Under the pieces are notes generated by a model, which was not told the origin of the DNA, did no database searches, and worked only from the letters and a program-made list of their open reading frames with translations. The translations under genes were made by a program, and so were the position numbers. 64,000 nucleotides of DNA from Candidatus Yonathbacteria bacterium RIFCSPLOWO2_01_FULL_43_27 (GTDB taxonomy: Bacteria > Patescibacteriota > Minisyncoccia > Phycocordibacterales > UBA1550), in contig MHUV01000003.1 of NCBI GenBank assembly GCA_001823545.1, positions 6,718 through 70,717 on the forward strand, written 5' to 3'. This document shows, one piece after another, positions 2,808 through 40,651 of this stretch; within the stretch, counting starts at the first letter, position 1, and every line of letters begins with the position of its first letter.

Positions 2808-5021
2808 TCATACGGTTACGAGATCTTTTTCGACACGCTTTAATGACACGGCATTTACCGCAACTATTATTGAAGACACACTCATCAAAAGTGCCGCAAA
2901 TTCTGGACGGAGCATAATGCCAAAGCTAGGATATAGAATTCCTCCAGCAATAGGAATTGCAAGGACATTGTAAATTGAAGCCCAAAAAAGATTCTGTTTC
3001 ATTTTGCGAACTGTTGCTTTGCTTAAGGTGATTGCTCGAAGAATGTCTAATGGGTCTGATTTCATAAGAACAACTTTTGCAGTTTCGATTGCCACGTCCG
3101 TGCCTGCACCAATAGCAATACCCACATCAGATTGAGCGAGCGCGGGTGCGTCGTTGACCCCATCGCCCACCATTGCCGTAAATTTTCCTTCTTCTTGTAA
3201 TTTTTTTACGTAGCTCGCTTTATCCGCAGGTATTACTTCCGCAAACACTCTTTCTATACCAATACGACTTGCCACATTCTCTGCGGTATTTTTATTGTCG
3301 CCGGTAATCATAGCAATCTCAATACCCAAAGCTTTCAAACTCTCAACGGTTTTTATGGCATTGGGTTTTATTGGATCAACTACACCAATCACTGCTTTAA
3401 TGGACCCATCAACAGCGAGAATCATAATCGTCTCCCCTTTTTCCAGAAACTCATTTATTTTTTGTTCCAGTATACCCAGAGCAATACCCTGTTCCTTCAT
3501 AAGTCTCACGGTACCGATAAGTAGTTGTTTTCCGTCGACAACGGCCTTTACTCCCAACCCTGAAAGATTTTTAAATTTATCAACCGACTCTGGCAATATA
3601 AGGTCGCGTTTCTTAAGCTCATCGAGCACGGCACCAGCCAAAGGGTGAGATGATTTCGCCTCTGCCGCGCCGACGAGGCGAAGTGCTTCGTCTGCACTAA
3701 AACCATCCACGGTAGCGATGTCAGTTACTTTTGATTTTCCTTCGGTAAGTGTCCCAGTTTTATCAAGGACAATTGCTTGGATTTTTGAAACTTGTTCTAG
3801 TGTGGGAGCATCTTTTATAAGAATATTATGTTTTGCCCCAAGGCCAGTACCGACAGCTACGGCAGTCGGCGTGGCAAGTCCAAGTGCGTCGGGGCAAGCA
3901 ATGACAACCGTAGCAATAGCAAAAGAGAGAGCCAAAAGGAGCGGTGAACCAACTATAAAATACCAAATTATAAATACCAAAAGACCTGATCCTACCGCCA
4001 CAATGACCAAGTACTTTGCAAACCTATCGGCGATTCTTTGTCCCGGAGCTTTTGAATTCTGCGCTTCTTCAACCATCGTTACAATTCGTGCAAGAGCAGT
4101 GTCCTTGCCGATTTTTGTTGCCTTAAATTTCACCGATCCGGTAGTGTTGATTGATCCCCCAATGACCTGGTCCCCAATCCTTTTAGCCGTAGGGATCGAT
4201 TCTCCAGTAACCAAAGATTCGTCTATGGCAGTTTCTCCCTCAATAACCTCACCATCAACAGGAACCTTGTCTCCTGGCTTAAGAATGATGATGTCACCAA
4301 GTTGTATATCGGATGTGGAAACCATCATCTCTCTGCCATCTTTAAAGATTCTGGCTTGAGGCGGTACGAGATTAAAAAGTGCCTGAAGAGCGTCTGTTGT
4401 CCCGCGACGAGATCTCATTTCCATCCAGTGACCGAACAAGACGAACGTGATAAGCATGGCAGCCGCTTCGTAATAGGAATCGGTACTTCCCATAAGAGTA
4501 AGCAGGATACTGAAGCCATACGCTGCAGTAATGCCGACGGCAATGAGTACCGCCATATTCAGTATTTTATTTTTCAACGCAAAATAAGTTGAATAGAGGA
4601 AAATCCATCCGGAATAAAAAAATACCGGTGTTGTTAACATAAAGAGGAGCCACGGTAAAGGAATTGGAGATGCCAGATCAATCCTTAAAAACTCGGTGCC
4701 TAAAGGCGAATACAAAATTATAGGAATGGTGAGGATAAGCGAGAAGAAGAATTTATTCCGAATATCTATCTCCATGAGGCGAGCCATTTCCCGACCTGCA
4801 AGTCCGGTATGATCCATGCCCATCGTCATCGACATACTCATCTTGAACTTTCCCCAGAATCCCATCTTCGATATATCGCCCATTGCGTGCCCAGAATGGG
4901 CACTATGCTTTTCCTGATCATCTTTCTTAACAAGCTTCATCCCACATTTCGGGCACGTGCCGAGTTTGCCCGAAACAACCTCAGGATGCATTGGGCAGGT
5001 ATACATTTTGTTTTCTTTCAT
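2808..5021 (-). CDS. copA: Copper-translocating P1B-type ATPase
   Basis: DKTGTLT phosphorylation motif, GDGVNDAPAL, TGES-like actuator, membrane CP(D)-ALGLATP motif (IACPDALGLATP). N-terminal metal-binding region YTCPMHPEV...CPKCGM followed by a His/Met-rich linker. Confidence 0.9.
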   Translation of the reverse strand: MKENKMYTCPMHPEVVSGKLGTCPKCGMKLVKKDDQEKHSAHSGHAMGDISKMGFWGKFKMSMSMTMGMDHTGLAGREMARLMEIDIRNKFFFSLILTIPIILYSPLGTEFLRIDLASPIPLPWLLFMLTTPVFFYSGWIFLYSTYFALKNKILNMAVLIAVGITAAYGFSILLTLMGSTDSYYEAAAMLITFVLFGHWMEMRSRRGTTDALQALFNLVPPQARIFKDGREMMVSTSDIQLGDIIILKPGDKVPVDGEVIEGETAIDESLVTGESIPTAKRIGDQVIGGSINTTGSVKFKATKIGKDTALARIVTMVEEAQNSKAPGQRIADRFAKYLVIVAVGSGLLVFIIWYFIVGSPLLLALSFAIATVVIACPDALGLATPTAVAVGTGLGAKHNILIKDAPTLEQVSKIQAIVLDKTGTLTEGKSKVTDIATVDGFSADEALRLVGAAEAKSSHPLAGAVLDELKKRDLILPESVDKFKNLSGLGVKAVVDGKQLLIGTVRLMKEQGIALGILEQKINEFLEKGETIMILAVDGSIKAVIGVVDPIKPNAIKTVESLKALGIEIAMITGDNKNTAENVASRIGIERVFAEVIPADKASYVKKLQEEGKFTAMVGDGVNDAPALAQSDVGIAIGAGTDVAIETAKVVLMKSDPLDILRAITLSKATVRKMKQNLFWASIYNVLAIPIAGGILYPSFGIMLRPEFAALLMSVSSIIVAVNAVSLKRVEKDLVTV

Positions 5022-5043
5022 TGAGTGAATAGTACCTGTGGTC

Positions 5044-5283
5044 TTATGAAGTTAAGTCTTTTTTCTTTTCTTCGAACTCTTTCTTATCAATTTCACCTTT
5101 CGCATAACGTTCCTTAAGAATATCGAGTGCTGACTTAGATCTTGGAGTGTCGGAATGGTTGCCACCCCTTGCCTCTCTTGCTAACCATACAATAAAGAAG
5201 ATAACTGCGCCCCAAAAAATTATCATCATCAAACCTCCTCCGAAACCCCAGCCAAAAATGTCTCCATAGTAATTTCCCATCAT
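5044..5283 (-). CDS. SHOCT-domain small membrane protein
   Basis: One TM (LMMIIFWGAVIFFIVWLA) followed by ALDILKERYAKGEIDKKEFEEKKKDL, which matches the SHOCT short C-terminal domain. Adjacent to copA. Confidence 0.65.
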   Translation of the reverse strand: MMGNYYGDIFGWGFGGGLMMIIFWGAVIFFIVWLAREARGGNHSDTPRSKSALDILKERYAKGEIDKKEFEEKKKDLTS

Positions 5284-5423
5284 ATATTTTTTTGTGATTA
5301 ATTAATAATTAATACAAATCCATGAACTCTTTAATAGCTTCTAGATTAATTGTTACATCGACCTTTATCTATACATACTCTATACCTCCGTACCCTTTAT
5401 GTCTACTCTATGTAGCGAGTATT

Positions 5424-6404
5424 CTAGATTCCACACCCACCTTGTTGTCGTGGGGGCGCAACTGTCGCTCCATTTCCTACTCCACAACCATTTCCGCTTC
5501 TTTGTTGTGGGGGTCGAGAGACCTGGGTGGCAATTTTTGCGTATCCTTGTGCACTTGAATAATTTATGCCAAGCATTTCTTGCGGATTCACATCCTTCCA
5601 TTCGATACCCTTGCTCTTCATGTAGGATGCTATCGTGAGATAGGTATCAGGGAACCAATATGAATTGACAACCAGAGCCGCTTTCCACATATCTTGCTCG
5701 CTCGCGCCTTGTGAGGCCATAAGTTCAAGAAACCCGAGCATAGCCATTCCGTGATTGCAGTCAGGGAAGTGAGTAGAATTACCACAGCATGGTCTATATA
5801 TGCCTCTTGATACTTTGTCTACGAGGTCCTGCTGTTCGGAGGTCAGATCAAAGAATTTATGACGGCTATAATGATCCATTGCGCTACCTTGAGCGATAGT
5901 CCACCCACCCGTTGATGCAAAGTTTCCCGCACCGCCGTAGGATGGATCTGTCATCTCTCCTGATTCCAATATTGGATTTTTACTTGCGAGCCCAAGTGCC
6001 CAAAACAAATTGAGCATATACCCAGCATTTTCGTTTGTGATCGTAAGTTTTCCCTCGTTTTGACCAAGAAGGAGTTTCCTGTATTCCTCGGTAAAAGCTC
6101 CTCGCTGATCATATATGGCTATAAACTTATCAGCATCAATGGTTCCGGTACTAACAAGTTTTGATCCAAGATCACCCCAAATAACCGGAAGCTCAACGCC
6201 ACCCGAGGGTAGAACCGCTTCTTCGGCAGCCGAAACTTGTTTTGCGCTTGGTGTTTGTAGTGAACTATTCCCCGCGTTGTAGATCATCTCTCCTGCGATT
6301 ACGAATCCTGCAATAATAATGGCGGTTGGGAGCGTGTATATACCATCAACCTTTTTCGACGTTTCCTGATCTTGAATTATCTCCTCTTGAATTTCGTTGT
6401 TCAT
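5424..6404 (-). CDS. Membrane-anchored hypothetical protein with conserved Cys/His motif; candidate metal-binding
   Basis: N-terminal TM (LPTAIIIAGFVIAG). Motif RPCCGNSTHFPDCNHGMAML. Gly/Cys-rich C-terminal tail GNGCGVGNGATVAPPRQQGGCGI. No family recognised by eye. Confidence 0.45.
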   Translation of the reverse strand: MNNEIQEEIIQDQETSKKVDGIYTLPTAIIIAGFVIAGEMIYNAGNSSLQTPSAKQVSAAEEAVLPSGGVELPVIWGDLGSKLVSTGTIDADKFIAIYDQRGAFTEEYRKLLLGQNEGKLTITNENAGYMLNLFWALGLASKNPILESGEMTDPSYGGAGNFASTGGWTIAQGSAMDHYSRHKFFDLTSEQQDLVDKVSRGIYRPCCGNSTHFPDCNHGMAMLGFLELMASQGASEQDMWKAALVVNSYWFPDTYLTIASYMKSKGIEWKDVNPQEMLGINYSSAQGYAKIATQVSRPPQQRSGNGCGVGNGATVAPPRQQGGCGI

Positions 6405-17342: not shown

Positions 17343-18371
17343 TTATGCAAGTATATACTTCCCTTCTTTTGTTTTTTTGAAAATCTTTGGATCTTGCAGG
17401 TTTACAAAGACAGTGTTTTCTTTGACATAACGCTCTTTGAGCACACGATCTATGATGTCCTTTTTCGAAAGTGGGCCTTCTTTTTTGAGAATTTTAGCAA
17501 TGACATCTTTAACGATTCCCTGCTCGTATCCCCACGAAGAGAGTGCGTATAGTCCGCGTCCAACGAGAATAAAACGAGGGTCTTTAATAAGTTCGTTGTG
17601 GCAAGTAGCAATATGAGCTTTTTTATCAAAAACTTGAGAAATTGATTTAGCAACTTCTGTGAAGTGCATTGGTGAGCCATGCTTACGAAGCACCAAATAT
17701 GCGTAGTCGCGCATACCACGTGCACTTACATTGTGTGATTCCGACCTCCCCCATTCGCCAAGCGGATTCTTTGAAATGGTTTTTGAGAGTGAGAGCCAAC
17801 GCTTGGTAATCTCTTCGTTCTTGTATGTATCTGATACGTCTTTGAGATGATTGAGGAACATCGCGATAAGTTCATTTTCGGGAATAAGTTCGTCTTGCGA
17901 AAGTGACTCATAGAGCGTGCGAAGTGCATCATGCACCTTCATTGAAATTTTGTCATCAACAATCCATCGATGATGAAAATGTTCATTCTCTTTTTCTCGA
18001 GCAAATTCATCGCCAAGTACCAAGAGGAAGTAGAGATGGTTTTGTGTGCTAGGATCTTTGGAAATATGCATCAAAAAATCTTCCTCACACACTACGCCAC
18101 CCATAGAAACAACAAGGTTGTGGAGCTCCGTAAAAACCCCTGCCTCTTTCTTGAAGATGTCAGATTTTTTTATGGTCGCAAGTGCAAAATTTTCTATCTG
18201 ACGCACACGCTCGCGGGTGATGTGATAAATATCGCCGATTGCTTCAAGAGTCATTCGGTCGGTATTATCTCCTAGTCCATAACGCTTGATAATGACATCT
18301 AGGTTGCGTGGAGGTAGTGTAGCGATAAGCCTTTTTACTACTTGCTTTGGCTTAAAAGTAATTGCGGACAT
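17343..18371 (-). CDS. DNA-binding protein: sigma-70 region-4-like HTH plus C-terminal HARE-HTH-like winged helix
   Basis: N-terminus LEAIGDIYHITRERVRQIENFALATIKK matches a sigma70 r4 HTH. C-terminus HFTEVAKSISQV...LIKDPRFILVGRGLYALSSWGY resembles HARE-HTH, as in RpoE-delta. Confidence 0.5.
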   Translation of the reverse strand: MSAITFKPKQVVKRLIATLPPRNLDVIIKRYGLGDNTDRMTLEAIGDIYHITRERVRQIENFALATIKKSDIFKKEAGVFTELHNLVVSMGGVVCEEDFLMHISKDPSTQNHLYFLLVLGDEFAREKENEHFHHRWIVDDKISMKVHDALRTLYESLSQDELIPENELIAMFLNHLKDVSDTYKNEEITKRWLSLSKTISKNPLGEWGRSESHNVSARGMRDYAYLVLRKHGSPMHFTEVAKSISQVFDKKAHIATCHNELIKDPRFILVGRGLYALSSWGYEQGIVKDVIAKILKKEGPLSKKDIIDRVLKERYVKENTVFVNLQDPKIFKKTKEGKYILA

Positions 18372-18502: not shown

Positions 18503-21340
18503 TTACCCCGTAACAATATTTATTAATTTACCCTTTACGATAATGATTTTTTTGATTTCCTGACCCCCTACCCATTTCACTACCATTTTTTCCTCCAGCG
18601 CGAGTTTCTGTATTTCCTCGTCAGAGGCAGATAAAGGGACGGTAATTGTTTCGCGTACTTTGCTGTTTACCTGAACGACAATAACGATCTCTTGCGCAGT
18701 CGTTTTTGATGGATCGTAGGTTGGCCACCGTGAGAGGTTGATTGACTCTGCGTTCCCGAGTGTATGCCATAGCTCTTCCGTAATATGTGGCGCAAATGGT
18801 GATAGGAGCACGAGGAGTGTTTCGTACTGTGAACGAAGTAGAACTGTTGCCTTCTCCATTTCATTTACCAAAATCATTAGCGCTGAGATTGCGGTATTGA
18901 AGTTAAATGATTCAATATCTTCCCCTACTTTTTTTATTGTCTTATGGAGAATTGACTCTACATCATGTGTGTCCCCTGCCGTGACAATTTTTTCTTGTAA
19001 ACGCCATACCCGCTCGAGAAAACGACGTGGTCCAATAATACTTTCGGTACTCCACGAAACAGATTGAGTAAATGGCCCCATAAACATTTCATACATGCGC
19101 ATCGTGTCTGCACCGTACTGATGGACCACATCATCAGGATTTATGACGTTGCTCCAGCGTTTGCTCATCTTGCGTCCATCGTTTGCCATAACCAAACCGA
19201 CGTTATATAAACGATTAAAAGGTTCCTCGTAATTCACCACCCCAAGATCGTACAAAAACTTATGATAGAATCGCGCGTAAATAAGGTGGCGCGTAGCGTG
19301 TTCAGCTCCACCGACATACATATCTACCGGTGACCAATATTGTTCTTTTGTATGCTCAACAAGTGCCGTGTCGTTCTTTGGATCCATATAACGAAGGTAG
19401 TACCACGATGATCCAGCCCACTGAGGCATCGTATTTGTCTCGCGTTTAGCAGGACCGCTACACGTTGGACAGGTCGTGTTTACCCAATCGGCAATATTCG
19501 CGAGTGGAGATTCTCCCGTTCCCGTAGGTTCGTACGATTCTACTTTTGGAAGAACTACGGGTAATTCATTTTCTGGTACTGCAACAACACCGCATTTTTC
19601 ACAGTGTACAAGGGGAATTGGTTCGCCCCAGTATCGTTGTCGTGAAAATACCCAATCCTCAAGACGGTACTTTGTTGTCCATTTCCCTTTTACAAAATGC
19701 GTGATATTTTTCTTCGCCTCTTCATTTGAAAGACCATTGAAATCACCAGAGTTAATGAGTACGCCACTGTCAATGTGTACCGCATCTTTTTCCTTGAGAC
19801 GAAGGAGCCAAATATCCATTTCCGCATGACACATCGTCACGGGGTTAATTTCTGATTCATCAAGCCATACGATGTCATTGTTTTCCTCTTCTTCTTTTGT
19901 AATCGAAGAACGCTCTTCATCTACCAATTCAGCATAGACCGCCGTGGTATACGAAACTCTGTTCTGGTCCTTATGCGCTGCAAAATACTCCGCGCGTACT
20001 TGCCCACCCAAAATTTGCTCGTTAGTGATATTTTTGTATCCCGTCTCCTCTAAAAGTTCTCGTCGCGCAGCATCAAGAACACTTTCTCCTTGTTCGACGC
20101 CACCCATAGGAAACGTAGTCCACCAATACTTCTTAGATTTCAAGCAAAGAAATTTCCCATTACGAGGATTTCGTATAATAACGTGCACATTTTCTCTTGT
20201 TACACTTTTCTTGCCGAGAACAGGAGGATTTCTCTTGTCGACTCTCTCAGGAATAATAACTTCTTTAACAGGAAGATGGTATTTTTTTGCAAAGGTAAAA
20301 TCTCGTACATCGTGTGCGGGTACTGCCATAACCGCTCCCGTACCGTAATGCGCAAGAACATAGTCTGCCACATACACAGGAAGCTCCTCGTTATTTGCGG
20401 GGTTTATCGCTATTACTCCTTTGAGCTGTACGCCTGTTTTTTCTTTACCAACAGCAGTGCGCTCTATTTCTGTTTTTATTTTTACCGCATCGCAATATGC
20501 TTCTACTTCGCTTTTATTAGAAACTTCCTCAAGGAGTTCACTCACGAGGGCGTGTTCTGGTGCCAATACCACATACGTCGCACCAAAAAGTGTGTCAGGA
20601 CGCGTCGTGAACACGGTAATTTTCTTGCTACCTCCCTTAATAAGGAAATCAATTTCCGCGCCTTCACTTCGCCCAATCCAATTTCGTTGTGATTCTTTGG
20701 TTGATGCGGGCCACTCAAGTTTATCGAGATCGGTAAGCAAACGGTCTGCGTAGTCGGTAATACGGAGCACCCACTGACGCATAGGTTTTTTCTCGATAAG
20801 GGTATCACATCGCTCACAACGGTCTCCGTCGAGGTCTTCGTTTGCAAGTCCCGTCAAGCATTTTGGGCACCAGTTAATAGGCTCATACGATTCATAAGCA
20901 AGACCTTTTTCGAACATTTTAAGAAAAATCCACTGTGTCCAACGATAGAAGTGCGGGTCAGTAGTATTTACTTCGCGTGACCAATCATAATCAAACCCCA
21001 GAATGGAGAGCTGTTCTTTATAACGAGCAACATTTTGTGCCGTCATAACCATCGGGTTAATTTTCATCTTGAGGGCGTAGTTTTCTGCGGGTAAACCAAA
21101 TGCATCAAAGCCCATAGGGTGAAGTACATTGAATCCCTGTAGTCTCTTCATACGAGAATACACGTCGGTTGCAATATAGCCCTTAGGATGCCCAACATGG
21201 AGACCCTCTCCAGAGGGATATGGGAACATGTCTAGTACATAGCACTTTGGTTTACTGATATCCTCTTTTGTATGATATAAGCCTGCCTTCTCCCATTGTT
21301 CCTGCCATTTCTTTTCTATCGTTCTGTGGTCGTAATTCAT
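18503..21340 (-). CDS. leuS: Leucyl-tRNA synthetase carrying an internal Nudix-box-containing insertion
   Basis: PYPSGEGLHVGHPKGY (HIGH), editing-domain TRPDTLFGATYVVLAPEH, KMSKR and the anticodon-binding domain are all present. A ~145-aa insert sits between AHDVRDFTFAKKYHLPVKEVI and GVLINSGDFNGL and contains GGVEQGESVLDAARRELLEETGY. Confidence 0.9.
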   Translation of the reverse strand: MNYDHRTIEKKWQEQWEKAGLYHTKEDISKPKCYVLDMFPYPSGEGLHVGHPKGYIATDVYSRMKRLQGFNVLHPMGFDAFGLPAENYALKMKINPMVMTAQNVARYKEQLSILGFDYDWSREVNTTDPHFYRWTQWIFLKMFEKGLAYESYEPINWCPKCLTGLANEDLDGDRCERCDTLIEKKPMRQWVLRITDYADRLLTDLDKLEWPASTKESQRNWIGRSEGAEIDFLIKGGSKKITVFTTRPDTLFGATYVVLAPEHALVSELLEEVSNKSEVEAYCDAVKIKTEIERTAVGKEKTGVQLKGVIAINPANNEELPVYVADYVLAHYGTGAVMAVPAHDVRDFTFAKKYHLPVKEVIIPERVDKRNPPVLGKKSVTRENVHVIIRNPRNGKFLCLKSKKYWWTTFPMGGVEQGESVLDAARRELLEETGYKNITNEQILGGQVRAEYFAAHKDQNRVSYTTAVYAELVDEERSSITKEEEENNDIVWLDESEINPVTMCHAEMDIWLLRLKEKDAVHIDSGVLINSGDFNGLSNEEAKKNITHFVKGKWTTKYRLEDWVFSRQRYWGEPIPLVHCEKCGVVAVPENELPVVLPKVESYEPTGTGESPLANIADWVNTTCPTCSGPAKRETNTMPQWAGSSWYYLRYMDPKNDTALVEHTKEQYWSPVDMYVGGAEHATRHLIYARFYHKFLYDLGVVNYEEPFNRLYNVGLVMANDGRKMSKRWSNVINPDDVVHQYGADTMRMYEMFMGPFTQSVSWSTESIIGPRRFLERVWRLQEKIVTAGDTHDVESILHKTIKKVGEDIESFNFNTAISALMILVNEMEKATVLLRSQYETLLVLLSPFAPHITEELWHTLGNAESINLSRWPTYDPSKTTAQEIVIVVQVNSKVRETITVPLSASDEEIQKLALEEKMVVKWVGGQEIKKIIIVKGKLINIVTG

Positions 21341-21349
21341 ATGCTTGTG

Positions 21350-22345
21350 TTATTTTGTTGGTATCTTATCAATTGGCGGGTACCGCTCTGGGTCTATAGT
21401 TCGTTCGAAACACGCGTGTCCTTTTTTGTGATGCCAATTATCTATTTTTTCTCCTTTTACATCAATAACTGCTACAGGGTATGGTCGCGATATCATGTTT
21501 GACGATCCATCCATTGTTGTGCGACTTTGTCCATTAAATACTGCGCACAACTGGAACGAAAGCGATGATGAACCCTTATACTCGTATGCTTCTTTTGTTT
21601 GTGGGTCTGTGGGTAACATAAAACCAGAAATAGGATCTGAGAGGTCACTTAATTTTTCTGGCAATCTTTTTTTCTGCTGCCAATAATTTACTACTTGCCA
21701 TTGAATATTCTGCAGGTCATTTACCCGCTGTGTATCATATCGTGCCAGACGCGCCTGTCGTGGTGTCCCTACGATAAAAAATCCTGAGATTACGGTACCA
21801 GCAACAATTACCGCAACCGCAACACCAACATAGAATATACGTCGCGGAAAATGTGTCCAGTATCCTTTCATGTCTGCAAGAAAATGTGCAAATACAATGA
21901 TTGCAACAATAATTACCGTTGCAATTTTCAAGAGGAAACGTGCGGTAAGCTCTTCGCCGTTCAAAAAGGTACTCAAGAGTACAATAAGAGTTCCCGCAAT
22001 TGTTGCACCTGAGACAAACAACGTGAATACGAGTGCCCATCGGCGCACCCAAATCTCCTGTCGCGTGGAATCAATAGATATGGTGTGGCGAATAACGCGC
22101 ATCAACACGAGGAATACCGGAACCGCAACGATTACCATTGCCATATAAGCACTGATACCGCTCTGGTAAGGGTCGATTTGGTATCCTCTCAGTGGATCGG
22201 GGTAAAGATAATTAATATACTGAAACACAAGATTAATAAACGCAATAATACTTGTATAAAATGCACCCATTGCGCCCACCCAAAGAAAGAAATCCTTAGG
22301 GGCTACGCGCGCACTTTTCCCTGGTTGTGTGGTAAGTGTTTCCAT
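21350..22345 (-). CDS. Multi-pass membrane protein, hypothetical
   Basis: 6-7 hydrophobic helices in the N-terminal two thirds, with a soluble C-terminal domain. Start taken at METLTT. Confidence 0.45.
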   Translation of the reverse strand: METLTTQPGKSARVAPKDFFLWVGAMGAFYTSIIAFINLVFQYINYLYPDPLRGYQIDPYQSGISAYMAMVIVAVPVFLVLMRVIRHTISIDSTRQEIWVRRWALVFTLFVSGATIAGTLIVLLSTFLNGEELTARFLLKIATVIIVAIIVFAHFLADMKGYWTHFPRRIFYVGVAVAVIVAGTVISGFFIVGTPRQARLARYDTQRVNDLQNIQWQVVNYWQQKKRLPEKLSDLSDPISGFMLPTDPQTKEAYEYKGSSSLSFQLCAVFNGQSRTTMDGSSNMISRPYPVAVIDVKGEKIDNWHHKKGHACFERTIDPERYPPIDKIPTK

Positions 22346-22434
22346 ATACAATACTATACCCCACATTTAATTTCCCGACAATATTGTTATTGCTTCTCAA
22401 AAATAATTTGTGTGATAGAATACGAGTAAATTAT

Positions 22435-22863
22435 ATGGAGAATAAAAAAACAAAAATACTGATTATTGACGACAATGAGATCATTCGCATGATGTTCTCC
22501 AATATTTTCTGGTTACACGGTCTTGATGATACGTATGAACTTAATACTGTTGCCCGCGCAGATGAAGCACTAAAACAAATAGATGATCCATCTTCACGTC
22601 CTGACATTATTTTTATGGGACTCGTGATGCCATTTGAAAAAGGTGGCAAGGTAACACCAAGTGTCGAAGCAGGATTTACGATTATTAAGCATATCAAAGA
22701 AAGCTCTGACCTCTCTCGTATTCGTATTATTGTCCTCTCGGGATATCAAGATGCTGAGTTTCAACAAAAAGCGCTCGATATGGGTGTCGAACACTATCTC
22801 AAAAAGAGTGAGAGTATGCCACAAAATATTCTTGAATTAATTCGCTCGCTCCACCAGTCATAA
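22435..22863 (+). CDS. Stand-alone receiver (REC) domain lacking the phospho-acceptor Asp (pseudo-receiver)
   Basis: KILIIDDNE (acidic pocket DD), SGY (T/S87 equivalent) and HYLKK (K109 equivalent) are present. The D54 position reads DIIFMGLVMP (Gly in place of Asp), followed by an unusual insert FEKGGKVTPSVEAGF. Confidence 0.6.
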   Translation: MENKKTKILIIDDNEIIRMMFSNIFWLHGLDDTYELNTVARADEALKQIDDPSSRPDIIFMGLVMPFEKGGKVTPSVEAGFTIIKHIKESSDLSRIRIIVLSGYQDAEFQQKALDMGVEHYLKKSESMPQNILELIRSLHQS

Positions 22864-22867
22864 TATT

Positions 22868-24169
22868 ATGAGTACCCCTCTCGTAAAATTAGAGAATGTA
22901 AACTATTACTACAACCGCGGTAAACCGTCGGAGGTACATGCGTTGAAAAACATTAATATCGAGATCCCACGCGGTGGATACGCAGCGTTCTTCGGTCCTT
23001 CTGGTTGTGGAAAAACAACACTCACTTATTTGATTGGTGGTATTGAAACTGAAAACACCGATAGCGGTAACATTTTGATTAACGGTCGTGACCTACGTGG
23101 CCTCGAAAAGAAAGAGCTTGCGGTGTATCGCCAGATCGGTGTAGGTATTATCTTTCAGCAGTTCAACCTTTTGCCCTCCCTTACCGTACTTGACAATGTC
23201 GCTCTTCCGATGGCATTTCTAGGTATTGACGTTGAACGCCGAAAAAAGGAGGCATTGAAACTTCTTGATCGTTTCGGTATGACAAAATATTCTGCACGCT
23301 TCCCTTCTGACCTTTCAGGAGGACAGCAACAGCGCGTAAGTATTGCACGTGCGCTTTCCAATAACCCCCCGCTTATTATCGCTGACGAACCGCTCGGTAA
23401 TCTCGATTCTGAAAATGCAAATAAAGCGCTTGAGTTCTTGAAAGAGCTGAACGAAAAAGACGGGCGTACGATTATTATGGTTACACACGAATCATGGTCA
23501 TTACGTGACGCGCGTCTCGTCATTTACCTCAAAGATGGCGAGGTTATACGAACTGATGAGCCTAAAAATAAAATTGACGCCAAGAAATCACTCTCTGAAC
23601 ATTTTTATAAACAACTCTACCCCGAGAGCCCACCGGAGAACCTTATGGCGCAATCTCTTTCCAGTATGCTTGCGCGCGGGTTGTCAGGACAAGAAATAAA
23701 GCGCTTCGAGCTATTCCTCGCAGAGCGCCTCAAAGGAAACATTACTTCGGAGCATTTCATTGATTTCCTCGACCAGCCTTTTAAAGATGGCGGATTAGGA
23801 CTCTGGAAACAGCGCGCTATTAAAATCTCAGAAACAGTTGACGAACTCGCTCATAATCGTAAAAAAGTAGAGGATGTTTACCACGAGCTTGAGCGTAATC
23901 CCGAAGTTCCCCTCTATGAAGAAATATCCAAAATGCGTGACTGGCTCTTGAGTAGCTATTCGGGTACCCTGGACGAAATTGGACGCGTTCGTTTCGATGA
24001 GGCCGTTGAGGATCGTATTCGTAACGTCATCTCATCTGAACATTTCTGTCGCGTTCTCGAACTTCCCCGTAAAGACTTTGGCGTTGGACTTTCTATGAGC
24101 GCTATTCGTGGCATCTCAGAGCGACTAGAATCGGCTCTTACCGGAAAAAAATATCAGGTATTACACTAA
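22868..24169 (+). CDS. ABC transporter ATP-binding protein (MacB/LolD/FtsE-like) with a ~200-aa duplicated C-terminal extension
   Basis: Walker A GPSGCGKTT, signature LSGGQQQRVSIARAL, Walker B LIIADEP, H-loop VTHE. The C-terminal extension has two homologous modules, ITSEHFIDFLDQPFKDGGLGLWKQRAIKISE and ISSEHFCRVLELPRKDFGVGLSMSAIRGISE. Confidence 0.85.
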   Translation: MSTPLVKLENVNYYYNRGKPSEVHALKNINIEIPRGGYAAFFGPSGCGKTTLTYLIGGIETENTDSGNILINGRDLRGLEKKELAVYRQIGVGIIFQQFNLLPSLTVLDNVALPMAFLGIDVERRKKEALKLLDRFGMTKYSARFPSDLSGGQQQRVSIARALSNNPPLIIADEPLGNLDSENANKALEFLKELNEKDGRTIIMVTHESWSLRDARLVIYLKDGEVIRTDEPKNKIDAKKSLSEHFYKQLYPESPPENLMAQSLSSMLARGLSGQEIKRFELFLAERLKGNITSEHFIDFLDQPFKDGGLGLWKQRAIKISETVDELAHNRKKVEDVYHELERNPEVPLYEEISKMRDWLLSSYSGTLDEIGRVRFDEAVEDRIRNVISSEHFCRVLELPRKDFGVGLSMSAIRGISERLESALTGKKYQVLH

Positions 24170-24215
24170 GGTTGCGAGTCCATCTGTTTTTTATTTTATT
24201 TAACAACACCACATT

Positions 24216-25466
24216 ATGGAACCAACCATCACCAAGCAACCTGAAAAATTAAAAGTTGATACGGGGCACAAATTATCTGTGTGGGATCTCCTCAAGCTAT
24301 CCTTACGCGTTTTTCGTACCAAACCTGCTCGTACGATTCTCACCATTCTTGGTATGTCTGTCGGTATCGGAACTGTTGTGTTTCTTGTGTCACTCGGATA
24401 TGGTCTCCAGTACATCTTGATCGGTCGCCTTATTACCAGCGAAGACTCACTTATTACGATTGAGGCTTCGTACCCATCTGAAAGTGGAAAAAGTATCGAT
24501 GCAAAAAAAGTAGAGGAAACGAAACACGTTCAAGGAATTGCTAGCATAAGCCCTGTTGCTGAGTTTATGGGTGAAGTTTCTATTGGTGATAAATCACGCG
24601 GTATTATTCCTATTATGCGTGTTGTTCCTGCTACTTATTTTAAGATGGCAGGCGCAAGTCCCGACATTGGAGAAGCATTTACCGAAGACACTCCAGGTGC
24701 CGTTCTTTCAGCAAAAGCGCTGATGCTCTTCGGTCTTCCTGCCGATAAATCAATTCTCGGTGAAGAAATTACCGGAAGTGTCTATTATCAAAAACCCGAC
24801 GGCTCAACAGAAGAAGTGATAGTTTCAAGAATGAAAATTCGCGGTATTTTTACTGACGACCGCGAAGACCCTCTCGCCTATATCCCCTACACCTCTGTCG
24901 CACAACCACCAACGTATTTTAAAAGCATGCTCATCAAGGCACGCGATATCAATTTCGTAGAGCCTCTTCGTGATACATTAGAAAAAGAAGGGTTCCTCAT
25001 TAGTGCAAAAGTTGACCTTGTTAAGCAAGCGCGCAAGATTACCAACGCGCTCACCACGGTGCTGATGGTTTTCGGTACCGCCGCACTTATTGTGTCAGCA
25101 ATTGGAATGTTCAACACTATGATCGTGGGCTTCCTTGAACGTATTTACGAAGTGGGCGTTATGAAATCGCTTGGTGCAACAGACAAGGACGTTCAAAATT
25201 TGTTCTTGATGGAGTCATTTATCATTGGGTTTCTCGGAGGAGTGTCGGGAGTTCTCTTGGGTATGGGGGGAGGTTCGCTTATTAACTTCGTTATGAGTTC
25301 TCTCTCAAAAGGAAGTGGTGGTCTTACCCTCACGCTCTTTATTACCCCAACGTGGTTTATTATTGCGACGCTCATCCTCTCATCGTCAATCGGTGTTATC
25401 TCTGGTTTTTATCCTGCACGACGCGCGTCGTATCTTTCGCCGCGTGAAGCGTTTGTACGCAAATAG
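24216..25466 (+). CDS. ABC transporter permease, FtsX/MacB family
   Basis: N-terminal TM, a large periplasmic domain, and C-terminal FtsX-type 3-TM bundle (LGATDKDVQNLFLMES...). Confidence 0.85.
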   Translation: MEPTITKQPEKLKVDTGHKLSVWDLLKLSLRVFRTKPARTILTILGMSVGIGTVVFLVSLGYGLQYILIGRLITSEDSLITIEASYPSESGKSIDAKKVEETKHVQGIASISPVAEFMGEVSIGDKSRGIIPIMRVVPATYFKMAGASPDIGEAFTEDTPGAVLSAKALMLFGLPADKSILGEEITGSVYYQKPDGSTEEVIVSRMKIRGIFTDDREDPLAYIPYTSVAQPPTYFKSMLIKARDINFVEPLRDTLEKEGFLISAKVDLVKQARKITNALTTVLMVFGTAALIVSAIGMFNTMIVGFLERIYEVGVMKSLGATDKDVQNLFLMESFIIGFLGGVSGVLLGMGGGSLINFVMSSLSKGSGGLTLTLFITPTWFIIATLILSSSIGVISGFYPARRASYLSPREAFVRK

Positions 25467-26816: not shown

Positions 26817-27308
26817 ATGGAAGAGAGCAAAAGAAACGAGAAGCTGTATTGTCTGTTTCAAGAGCTTGGCGGATTTTATCCTTCCATGGGCACCATTTTT
26901 CTTCCCGAATCTGAACGCATAGAAGAGTTGATGAAAAGACTCGAAGCGTACCAGAAAAAAGAGAAGATTGATTCCGCTCAAAAGGTAGCAAGACTTCTTC
27001 CTGAGCCTCAGCGGACAAATGAGTTAAAGAAGATTTTTGAATCATACCGAGAGAGGAGTAAATACAAAGAGGCAGAAGAAGTAGCACTGCTTCTTCCCGA
27101 GCCACACAGAAGTGATTCACTAGTAATAGTCCTCAGATTTTATTTTGATCAATTTTCGGTTGATAACCCCCTGAGGATCGTACGTATCCTTCAGGAACCT
27201 CAGAGGGCAAATGAGTTAATGAAGATGCTCGAAGTGTGCATCGAAAAATACAAGCACGAGGATGCTCGAAAAGTGGCAGATGTAATCCTCGAAGACTATA
27301 GAAAATAA
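26817..27308 (+). CDS. Hypothetical protein with three to four ~40-aa tandem internal repeats
   Basis: Repeats KVARLLPEPQRTNELKKIFESY, EVALLLPEPHRSDSLVIVLRFY, LRIVRILQEPQRANELMKMLEVC. Strong RBS. Confidence 0.5.
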   Translation: MEESKRNEKLYCLFQELGGFYPSMGTIFLPESERIEELMKRLEAYQKKEKIDSAQKVARLLPEPQRTNELKKIFESYRERSKYKEAEEVALLLPEPHRSDSLVIVLRFYFDQFSVDNPLRIVRILQEPQRANELMKMLEVCIEKYKHEDARKVADVILEDYRK

Positions 27309-38077: not shown

Positions 38078-40651
38078 TTACTTCTTTTTTAGCACCTTCT
38101 TGAGGTATTTCCCTGTATGGGAATGTGTATTTGCAGCGATTTGCTCAGGAGTACCCCGCGCAACGATCTGTCCGCCCCCTACCCCACCCTCGGGACCAAA
38201 ATCAAGCACGTAGTCTGCACTTTTTATAACATCCATATTGTGCTCAATGAGTAGCACGCTGTTGCCTTTATCAACAAGTTTTTGCAAAATTTCAATAAGT
38301 TTACGTACGTCTTCATAATGAAGTCCAACAGTTGGTTCATCGAGAAGGTAGATTGTACGCTCAGCAAAAGGACGGTAGAGCTCTGAAGAGATTTTAACAC
38401 GCTGTGCCTCGCCACCAGAAAGTGTGGTTGCTGATTGCCCAAGCTTCAAATACCCAAGTCCTACCTCATTCAGTGTTTTGAAACGATCGTAAATTGCGGG
38501 AATATCCTCAAAAAACGTGAGTGCTTCTTCGACGGTCATTTCGAGCACGTCGAAAATATTCTTTTTTTTGTACTTTACCTCGAGTGTTTCTTTATCGAAT
38601 CGTTTTCCGCGACACACATCGCACGTTACATACACCGTTGGTAAAAAGTGCATTTCAACCGCAATGAGCCCATTACCCTGACAGGTCTCACATCGACCAC
38701 CTTTTACATTAAAAGAAAAACGTCCCGGCCCCCACCCACGCAAGCGCGCCTCCTCGGTTTCCGCAAAAATATCACGAATAAAGGTAAATGCACCCGTGTA
38801 GGTTGCGGGATTAGAACGGGGGGTGCGTCCGATAGCAGACTGATCAATAAGCACCGTACGGCTCAAATATTCCGTGCCGGTAAAACTTTCACAATTAAAA
38901 ATCTGATTAGTGCGATACTTGTATTCCAAACGCGCTTGAAGATTTTTGTGCACTATTTCGTACAAGAAGGTAGACTTTCCTGAACCAGAAACACCCGTAA
39001 TAGCAACGAGTTTACCGAGAGGAATTTCCGCATTAAGATTTTTTATACTAAACGCTGCACCCTCACGAATACGCAGATGCCCGCGATCTTGCGCGCGACG
39101 TGCATGAGGAATCTCAACCACAGTATCTCCACGCAGATAATCGAGCGTAAGTGATTTATATTTTTTAGGATTGGTAATGAGGTCATCAAGATACCCTGCT
39201 ACCACGATATTACCACCATGCACCCCCGCCCCTGGGCCAATATCCACCATATAGTCCGCAGAGAAAATAGTATCCTCATCGTGTTCAACCACAATGATAG
39301 TGTTGCCGAGATCGCGTAATTCTTTCAGGGTTTTAATGAGGCGGTCATTGTCTCGCTGATGAAGACCGATAGTCGGCTCATCGAGCACATAGAGCGCGCC
39401 CACAAGACGTGAACCGAGCTGTGATGCCAGACGGATGCGTTGTGCCTCACCACCAGAGAGTGTGTTGGCGCGTCGGTCGAGAGTAAGGTAATCAATCCCC
39501 ACGTCAAGCATAAAGCGAAGACGGTTTTCAATTTCCTTTACCACTGGCACCGAAATATCTTTATCACGCGTAGATATTTTCAAGTGTGCAAAAAAATCAC
39601 TTGCTTCACGAATTGACATGCGGGTCACCTCGACAATATTCTTGCCACTGATGCGTACATTTAGGGCTTCTTTACGCAAACGAGCACCTTCACAGTCAGG
39701 GCACGCTTCTTTGCCAAAAAAATGTTTCGTGCCAAGACCATTACAAAGTGGACACGCGCCGTAGGGAGAATTAAACGAAAAAAGACGTGGCTCTATTTCT
39801 GGATATGAAAAACCATCATTGGGGCACGCAAAACGATTGGACATAATGGTGTCTTTGAGAATTGTCGTATCTTTTGCAAACACAATACGTACCAAACTTT
39901 CAGATTCAGTAAGTGCACGCTCCATCGCCTCAGCAAGACGCGCGCGCCCTTTTTCGTTCTTACCAGCAAAGTCTGCTATGCTGATTTCATCAACCAGTAC
40001 ATCAATCTCGTGCTTTTTTGTCTTTGAAAGAATGATCTGCTCGCGAAGATTTTTCATCTCGCCATCAATGCGCACCAAAAGGTACCCTTTGCCAAGGAGA
40101 TCGTAGAGAAGCTGATAGTATTCGCCCTTGCGCCCACGTACAATGGGTGCAAAAATTTTAATAGTGTCAGATTTTTTTCCAACAGCTCCCTTCACATCTT
40201 CCATAATGAAATTCAAAATTTCCTCGTTACCAAGACGCTTGATTTCTTCTCCACACACGAGACAATAAGGTTTTCCAATACGCGCATACAATACACGAAG
40301 GTAATCGTAGATTTCGGTAATCGTCGCCACGGTCGAGCGTGGATTTGATGAGTGTGATTTTTGGTCAATAGAAATTGCCGGCGAAAGACCCGTGATTTCA
40401 TCCACGTCGGGCTTTTGCATTTGATTCAAGAACTGACGTGCGTATGCGGAAAGTGACTCAACATAGCGTCGTTGCCCCTCTGCAAAAATCGTATCAAACG
40501 CAAGGGATGATTTTCCTGAACCAGAGAGACCTGTAAAAACCGTCATCGTGTTGCGCGGTATTTCAACAGAAATATTCTTAAGATTGTGCGTGCGGGCACC
40601 ACGAACAGTGATTTTATCCAGCTCTTTTATTTTTTTATGTTCCGATCTCAT
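38078..40651 (-). CDS. uvrA: Excinuclease ABC subunit A
   Basis: Two ABC ATPase modules ([24 protein letters not shown]; LSGGEAQR in both) and zinc-finger Cys clusters. Confidence 0.9.

Follow-up and report, generated by a model that had tools for sequence, protein, structure and literature searches.

A stand-alone receiver gene beside a type VII ABC transporter in Yonathbacteria and other Paceibacteria

The stretch of DNA analysed here, 64,000 nucleotides of contig MHUV01000003.1 from Candidatus Yonathbacteria bacterium RIFCSPLOWO2_01_FULL_43_27 (hereafter the window), carries a small receiver gene (REC) directly upstream of genes for an ABC ATPase and a permease. The locus raises the question of what a signalling receiver is doing beside a transporter, and what it means that this receiver has glycine at the position where receivers are phosphorylated. 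A preliminary description, made from the letters of the sequence, had placed three same-strand genes here, and their positions stand as it gave them (Table 1). The reading that we favour, and which as a whole we give about an even chance of being right, is that the three genes form an operon of a stand-alone receiver, an ABC ATPase and a MacB/FtsX-type (type VII) permease, conserved in Paceibacteria (the Parcubacteria-type bacteria of the candidate phyla radiation, CPR), and that REC is a regulatory partner of the ATPase.

Conservation of the receiver-transporter unit

The ATPase of the window ends in a C-terminal extension, the tail, which is described below. A scan that took one genome per species found 51 loci encoding a tail-bearing ATPase (genome loci carry labels of the form L###), essentially all of them in CPR bacteria of the Paceibacteria type: Yonath-, Lipton-, Wolfe-, Terry-, Kaiser-, Nomura-, Staskawicz- and Adlerbacteria. 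Where the relevant flank was available (46 genome loci), REC adjoins the tail-bearing ATPase and the permease in 41, mostly directly upstream. When the search was started from REC in metagenome sequences, all 14 family RECs with enough downstream DNA were followed by a tail-bearing ATPase, and the earlier expectation that relatives would keep the three genes together is thus borne out from both sides. Between the REC stop codon and the ATPase start, the median gap is -3 nt; in 34 of 38 loci it is within +-20 nt, and in the window it is 4 nt. The usual arrangement, an overlap or only a few nucleotides between the two genes, is what co-translated partners typically show. The flanking genes, encoding leucyl-tRNA synthetase, a DUF5671 protein and YchF, are conserved only inside the Yonathbacteria clade. 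Because the association of REC with the ATPase is tight, reciprocal and translationally coupled, we infer that REC works with the transporter, and since REC has no output domain (Pfam), it would have to act by binding a partner.

The receiver and its acceptor site

REC scores 52.9 bits against the Pfam Response_reg family (PF00072) over residues 8-128, above the gathering score of 30.2, and aligns end to end with solved response regulators in HMMER, making it the genuine receiver domain that the preliminary description had taken it for. Gly62 falls in the column of CheY Asp57 both in the HMMER alignments to solved response regulators and in a MAFFT alignment with CheY, Spo0F and PhoB; the exchange of Asp for Gly that had been read from the sequence is thus correct, and the window REC has no Asp at the acceptor position. 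The acidic pair (Asp12/Asp13), Ser102 (CheY T87) and Lys124 (K109) are kept, as had been described, together with Tyr121 (Y106), and all are conserved among homologues. In 92 of 94 sequences (the window and 93 close homologues) the acceptor residue is glycine, and Gly62 is therefore no sequencing error. Searches of the 64-kb window by tblastn, by motif scan and by phmmer with EnvZ and two CPR kinases (E<=10) found no HisKA/HATPase_c protein, in keeping with the earlier statement that no histidine kinase is nearby.

Proteins that are recognised as receivers and lack the D site are defined as aspartate-less receivers (PMC12632262), and by this definition and that of PMC4395418 the window REC is an aspartate-less receiver (ALR) or pseudo-receiver (PsR). 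It is a new member of an already known class. Like FrzS, RitR, HP1043 and ChxR, it belongs to PF00072 without the phospho-acceptor Asp and is an orphan without an adjacent kinase; unlike them, it stands alone directly upstream of an ABC ATPase gene, and most of its orthologues are ordinary Asp receivers. Glycine makes up 11% of ALR substitutions at the acceptor site; as of 2015, no member of this Gly class had been characterised or had its structure solved (PMC4395418).

The insert in the beta3-alpha3 loop, earlier put at 15 aa, measures 10 aa against CheY, Spo0F and PhoB and 10-13 aa against response regulators of the PDB. It occurs in RECs with Asp as well as in those with Gly, and is therefore no compensation for the lost Asp. 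Asp57 (in 'RPDIIF') and Glu78 (in the insert) were considered as replacement acceptors and rejected, both being conserved in Asp-type proteins too.

Across 43 orthologous REC loci, the acceptor residue is Asp in 28, Gly in 14 and Cys in one. The losses of Asp fall in three separate clades of the permease tree: the Yonathbacteria (Gly, including the window), L046 of the Adlerbacteria (Gly), and L030 and L044 of the Staskawiczbacteria (Gly and Cys). By this distribution, Gly in the Yonathbacteria clade is a derived, lineage-specific state, and two further lineages lost Asp independently. Ancestrally the module was a normal, presumably phosphorylatable receiver system, of which the window represents a derived state, hard-wired or re-wired. 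The phosphorylation-independent adaptor proposed in the preliminary description is therefore right in part: the acceptor Asp is gone from the window REC, but the module is not intrinsically independent of phosphorylation, given the 28 of 43 loci that keep Asp. The acidic pair and the Ser, Tyr and Lys are common to Asp-type and Gly-type RECs. The ratio of REC to permease divergence is 1.52 in the Gly clade against 1.44 in the Asp-type lineages, which gives no sign of relaxed constraint on the Asp-less REC. A metagenome scan with the REC alignment added 14 more REC-ATPase pairs and no new independent loss of Asp.

Histidine kinases were seen beside two members of the family. At L046, the gene directly downstream of the permease (3695-5809, +) encodes a hybrid histidine kinase of 704 aa that has a C-terminal receiver of its own, and the stand-alone REC of this locus (173-613) has a Gly acceptor despite the neighbouring hybrid kinase. 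At L021, a kinase lies ~3 kb upstream, alongside an Asp-type REC.

The ATPase tail, the transporter and a possible receiver contact

The ATPase has intact Walker A (GPSGCGKTT), signature (LSGGQQQR), Walker B (LIIADEP, with the catalytic Glu) and H-loop (MVTHE) motifs, and ABC_tran (PF00005) covers its first 176 residues (Pfam, 1.3e-31). The two modules of the tail, which follows the nucleotide-binding domain (NBD), match each other with an hhalign probability of 99.5% (E 5.6e-23, 76 columns); the tail is therefore a tandem duplication of a ~78-aa module, in agreement with the two homologous modules earlier noticed in an extension of ~200 aa (208 aa as measured). Every module is built from a pair of helices, a short helix, the Gly-rich hairpin P-x-x-x-G-G-x-G-L and a last helix that starts x-x-x-(T)A. 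The 'SEHF' at residue 243 was rejected as a third module, as it sits in the linker. In an AlphaFold2 model the tail is all-helical, with nine helices (predicted local distance difference test, pLDDT, 88.8; predicted template modelling score, pTM, 0.77), and the ~30-aa linker is predicted with low confidence.

No Pfam match was found for the tail, either for that of the window alone or across 40 family members, and neither phmmer nor the family profile gave a significant sequence match in the PDB, which agrees with the preliminary description of a domain that could not be assigned. A similarity to RGS (phmmer against the PDB, E 0.016) was rejected because it was lost with the family profile and the best fold-search matches listed did not include RGS. 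Among 1.84 billion cluster representatives, an exhaustive HMMER search recovered 258 tail-bearing representatives (clusters at 50% identity), 163 of them at E<=1e-10, and the tail-bearing proteins examined were either attached to an ABC NBD or fragments. The tail is near-neutral, with a median isoelectric point (pI) of 6.3, and protein binding therefore fits better than DNA binding. Taken together, the comparisons and the model describe the tail as an uncatalogued domain, a lineage-specific, tandem-duplicated, all-helical C-terminal domain.

Some tail-bearing homologues depart from the arrangement in the window. Module number is variable, with three or more GGxGL copies in some of P0158, P0159 and P0173 (three in P0158), and P0200 and P0229 have long low-complexity C-terminal tails. 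The N-terminal extensions of P0211 and P0219 were considered as fused receivers and rejected, as they are not receivers. The record MHUP01000007.1 (Candidatus Yonathbacteria bacterium RBG_16_43_6) differs from the window by 2 mismatches in 5,563 nt. Through one of these it has TGA (L052 3851-3853) where the window has TGG (23495-23497), the codon for the conserved Trp210 of the ATPase, and NCBI therefore annotates this ATPase as pieces of 209 aa and 174 aa, with the tail as a separate 174-aa hypothetical protein. The gene calls of the same record, in which there are runs of N, list no gene across the permease and YchF region.

The permease matches FtsX (PF02687, 4.7e-20) and MacB_PCD (PF12704, 2.8e-16) in Pfam. 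The nearest NCBIfam models are DarD, LolD, FtsE and the MacB NBD for the ATPase, and MacB, ADOP, LolCE and FtsX for the permease, all far below their family cut-offs. MacB proper was rejected because the NBD and permease genes are separate and PRK10535 scores 176 and 71 bits against a cut-off of 966. FtsEX and LolCDE were rejected on the NCBIfam equivalog models (FtsE 180.4 against 264.85 and FtsX 33.7 against 255; LolD 183 against 307.75 and lolCE 38.6 against 362.45). Judged by these profile scores, the transporter is a type VII (MacB/FtsX-type) ABC system outside all named subfamilies. With MacB, LolCDE, FtsEX and the Gram-positive YknYZ- or HrtAB-like pairs it shares a separate LolD/FtsE-like ATPase and a permease combining a single FtsX domain with a MacB-like extracytoplasmic core; in contrast to them, it adds the 208-aa duplicated helical tail and a dedicated receiver gene, and no membrane-fusion partner gene was found among the genes nearest the operon.

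Known systems offer partial parallels. An extra domain at the C-terminus of the NBD, as in MalK (RD), MetN (C2), ModC (TOBE) and OpuAA (CBS), could gate NBD closure, and by analogy the window tail might do so too; those domains, however, are beta-rich or CBS folds on importers, whereas the tail, a tandem repeat that is all-alpha, belongs to a type VII system and has no detectable relative in Pfam or the PDB. Bce-type modules (BceAB with BceRS) likewise tie an FtsX-family transporter genetically and functionally to two-component proteins (PMC9169098). They comprise a histidine kinase, an OmpR-type DNA-binding regulator and a 10-TM (transmembrane) permease, whereas the window has a receiver without an output domain, no kinase and a MacB-like permease with a single FtsX domain. 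Assignment as a Bce-type module was rejected, as there is no adjacent histidine kinase (64-kb window) and no OmpR-type output domain on REC. CheY (with FliM), DivK, CpdR and EpsW (PMC12802240) resemble REC in being receivers without an output domain for which partner contact is presumed, and REC differs from them in that its presumed partner is an ABC ATPase. Single-domain regulators acting by protein contact, such as EpsW (PMC12802240), are the nearest mechanistic precedent. In the literature searched, no report was found of a receiver acting on an ABC ATPase, of a stand-alone receiver gene dedicated to, and fixed beside, the gene of such an ATPase, of the three-gene module itself, or of two-component signalling reaching a transporter's activity in this way without transcription.

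We regard it as evenly balanced whether REC is a dedicated regulatory partner of the ATPase that was switched by phosphorylation ancestrally and is fixed or otherwise controlled in the window. REC would be a regulatory subunit that binds the ATPase at the NBD and/or at module 2 of the tail, and its binding would tune NBD closure and ATP hydrolysis and, through them, permease mechanotransmission. A kinase encoded elsewhere would control the binding by phosphorylation in most Paceibacteria lineages; Yonathbacteria would have lost this switch, leaving REC to act constitutively or to respond to another input.

A possible site of contact is suggested by covariation, for which we counted columns that do not vary among Asp-type loci but differ in each of the three Asp-less lineages. 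The ATPase has two columns with this pattern: Val187, in the helix after the D-loop, and Arg411, which precedes the conserved Ala of the module-2 hairpin by two residues. Both are invariant in 38 of 38 Asp-type pairs (with one Lys at 411) and both are changed in all three Asp-less lineages, the window ATPase having Ser411 where Asp-type orthologues have Arg. The 10 extra Asp-type pairs from metagenomes keep Val187 and Arg411, the four extra Gly-type pairs have neither, and none of 153 conserved permease columns shows the pattern. The covariation points weakly to the ATPase, and to module 2, as the contact of REC, and is a lead, not proof. A more specific proposal, possible though on balance doubtful, is that the duplicated tail is a new receiver-docking domain, a reader of phospho-receivers. 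REC would then be a stoichiometric subunit, binding in a phosphorylation-dependent manner at Arg411 of module 2 and at Val187 and gating NBD closure, and the switch would have been hard-wired in Yonathbacteria and the two other lineages by loss of the Asp with the matching Arg.

Several points weigh against REC as a regulatory partner of the ATPase. REC lies directly downstream of the permease in four loci (L021, L022, L030 and L044), and in five loci with intact flanks a tail-bearing ATPase has no adjacent REC. A kinase is inferred for the Asp forms, and a histidine kinase was present within the fetched flanks in only 2 of 51 loci. Among the long tail-bearing proteins there is no REC-ATPase fusion. 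The covariation amounts to three independent events, with ~0.57 such columns expected by chance (estimated P ~0.1). The proposed REC-ATPase contact is itself an indirect deduction, and an envelope or extrusion role of the transporter is assumed from the MacB/FtsX family alone.

The five loci without an adjacent REC would fit a tail that is a regulatory domain in its own right, of the ligand-binding or dimerisation (trans-inhibition) type seen in MalK, MetN and ModC, with REC acting elsewhere (for instance on the permease or the NBD by itself, or on a different target) and not docked on the tail. ABC ATPases with a C-terminal regulatory domain are well established, module number varies (as in P0158), and the conserved Gly-rich hairpin, with a helix N-terminus behind it, could by its sequence bind an anion or phosphate. 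The reciprocal association of REC and tail is, however, very tight, and Arg411 of module 2 tracks the acceptor state of REC; we consider such a tail, with REC acting elsewhere, unlikely. It also seems quite unlikely that REC merely shares a transcript with the transporter and, as an orphan single-domain regulator, signals to an unrelated target. Single-domain receivers commonly have diverse partners, as illustrated by EpsW on a phosphoglycosyl transferase (PMC12802240), and the lack of a REC-ATPase fusion among tail-bearing proteins would agree with this, but the adjacency is kept across deep Paceibacteria divergence with reading frames overlapping or nearly so, and REC remains with the unit even in the four loci where it has moved downstream of the permease.

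The Gly-rich hairpin of the tail also bears a suggestive resemblance to the helix-hairpin-helix motif, which would make the tail a nucleic-acid-binding domain and have the ATPase contact DNA or RNA, in DNA uptake or gene control. Since the hairpin spacing differs, no helix-hairpin-helix profile matches and the tail is near-neutral, nucleic-acid binding is a minority possibility and, in our estimate, a very unlikely one. That the Gly-type REC is a decaying, functionless remnant in Yonathbacteria might be suspected from the loss of the catalytic Asp and from the lack of a kinase in the 64-kb window. Its reading frame is nevertheless intact in 12 of 12 Yonathbacteria-clade loci and in 92 Gly-bearing sequences (the window and close homologues) down to ~50% identity, the acidic pair, Ser, Tyr and Lys are retained, and its relative evolutionary rate equals that of the Asp forms, and we hold decay to be highly improbable.

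Features of the locus, neighbouring genes and significance

Table 1. Features of the receiver-transporter locus, in window coordinates
Feature	Position	Strand	Basis
REC, single-domain receiver of aspartate-less (pseudo-receiver) type, 142 aa	22435-22863	+	Pfam PF00072 4.7e-14; response-regulator alignments; 93 homologues
ATPase, 433 aa	22868-24169	+	
Permease, 416 aa	24216-25466	+	
Promoter-like TTCTCA-16-TAGAAT with TG extension	22394..22421	+	14 nt upstream of REC start codon; consensus match only
Gly62 codon at phospho-acceptor (CheY Asp57) position	22618..22620	+	HMMER and MAFFT alignments
10-aa insert KGGKVTPSVE (K69-E78), beta3-alpha3 loop	22639..22668	+	whole family
ABC nucleotide-binding domain (NBD), ATPase residues 1-225	22868..23542	+	motifs; best NCBIfam matches below cut-offs
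C-terminal extension of ATPase, residues 226-433 (208 aa): ~30-aa linker, then two helical modules	23543..24166	+	
Module 1, residues 257-332, motif P-F-K-D-G-G-L-G-L-W-K-Q-R-A	23636..23863	+	
Module 2, residues 349-428, motif P-R-K-D-F-G-V-G-L-S-M-S-A	23912..24151	+	
Type VII ABC permease: MacB-like extracytoplasmic core domain residues 40-255, FtsX transmembrane domain residues 284-409	24216..25466	+	Pfam

In the region scanned for promoter-like sites, 17 were observed against 10.4 expected, which makes the site at 22394..22421 weak evidence for a promoter. Divergent from the REC operon, and 68 nt away, is the gene for a 338-aa DUF5671 membrane protein (21350-22366, -), which is syntenic only inside the Yonathbacteria clade (L001, L003, L005-L007, L009, L010 and L049). 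The 945-aa leucyl-tRNA synthetase (18503-21340, -) contains a NUDIX hydrolase domain at residues 382-500 (Pfam 3e-16; Nudix box GESVLDAARRELLEETGY), located at the C-terminal end of the CP1 editing domain. Searches by tblastn suggest that this insert is present in L001, L005 and L007 and absent from L002, L003, L006, L009 and L049, where high-scoring segment pairs break at about residues 360-520. A 342-aa protein (17343-18371, -) combines an N-terminal Sigma70 region 4 helix-turn-helix (1.3e-12) with HARE-HTH (1.5e-10). On the other side of the operon, a 163-aa open reading frame without a Pfam match (26817-27308, +) has three copies of the motif LLPEPQR(T/A)NEL(K/M)K ~40 residues apart. Further along, at ~38200-40600 (-), tblastn with the NBD found two weak tandem ABC-type ATPase segments, which may belong to a two-NBD protein such as UvrA or ABC-F.

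The tail family, with its 258 clusters at 50% identity, could be added to domain databases. The receiver family offers a natural experiment on receivers losing phosphorylation, in which the Asp was lost three times independently, the remainder of the active site was kept and the partner may have changed to match. If REC does directly regulate the ATPase, two-component signalling would reach transporter activity by a route that bypasses transcription, and this route would belong to one of the few membrane machines that are conserved in the genome-reduced CPR bacteria.

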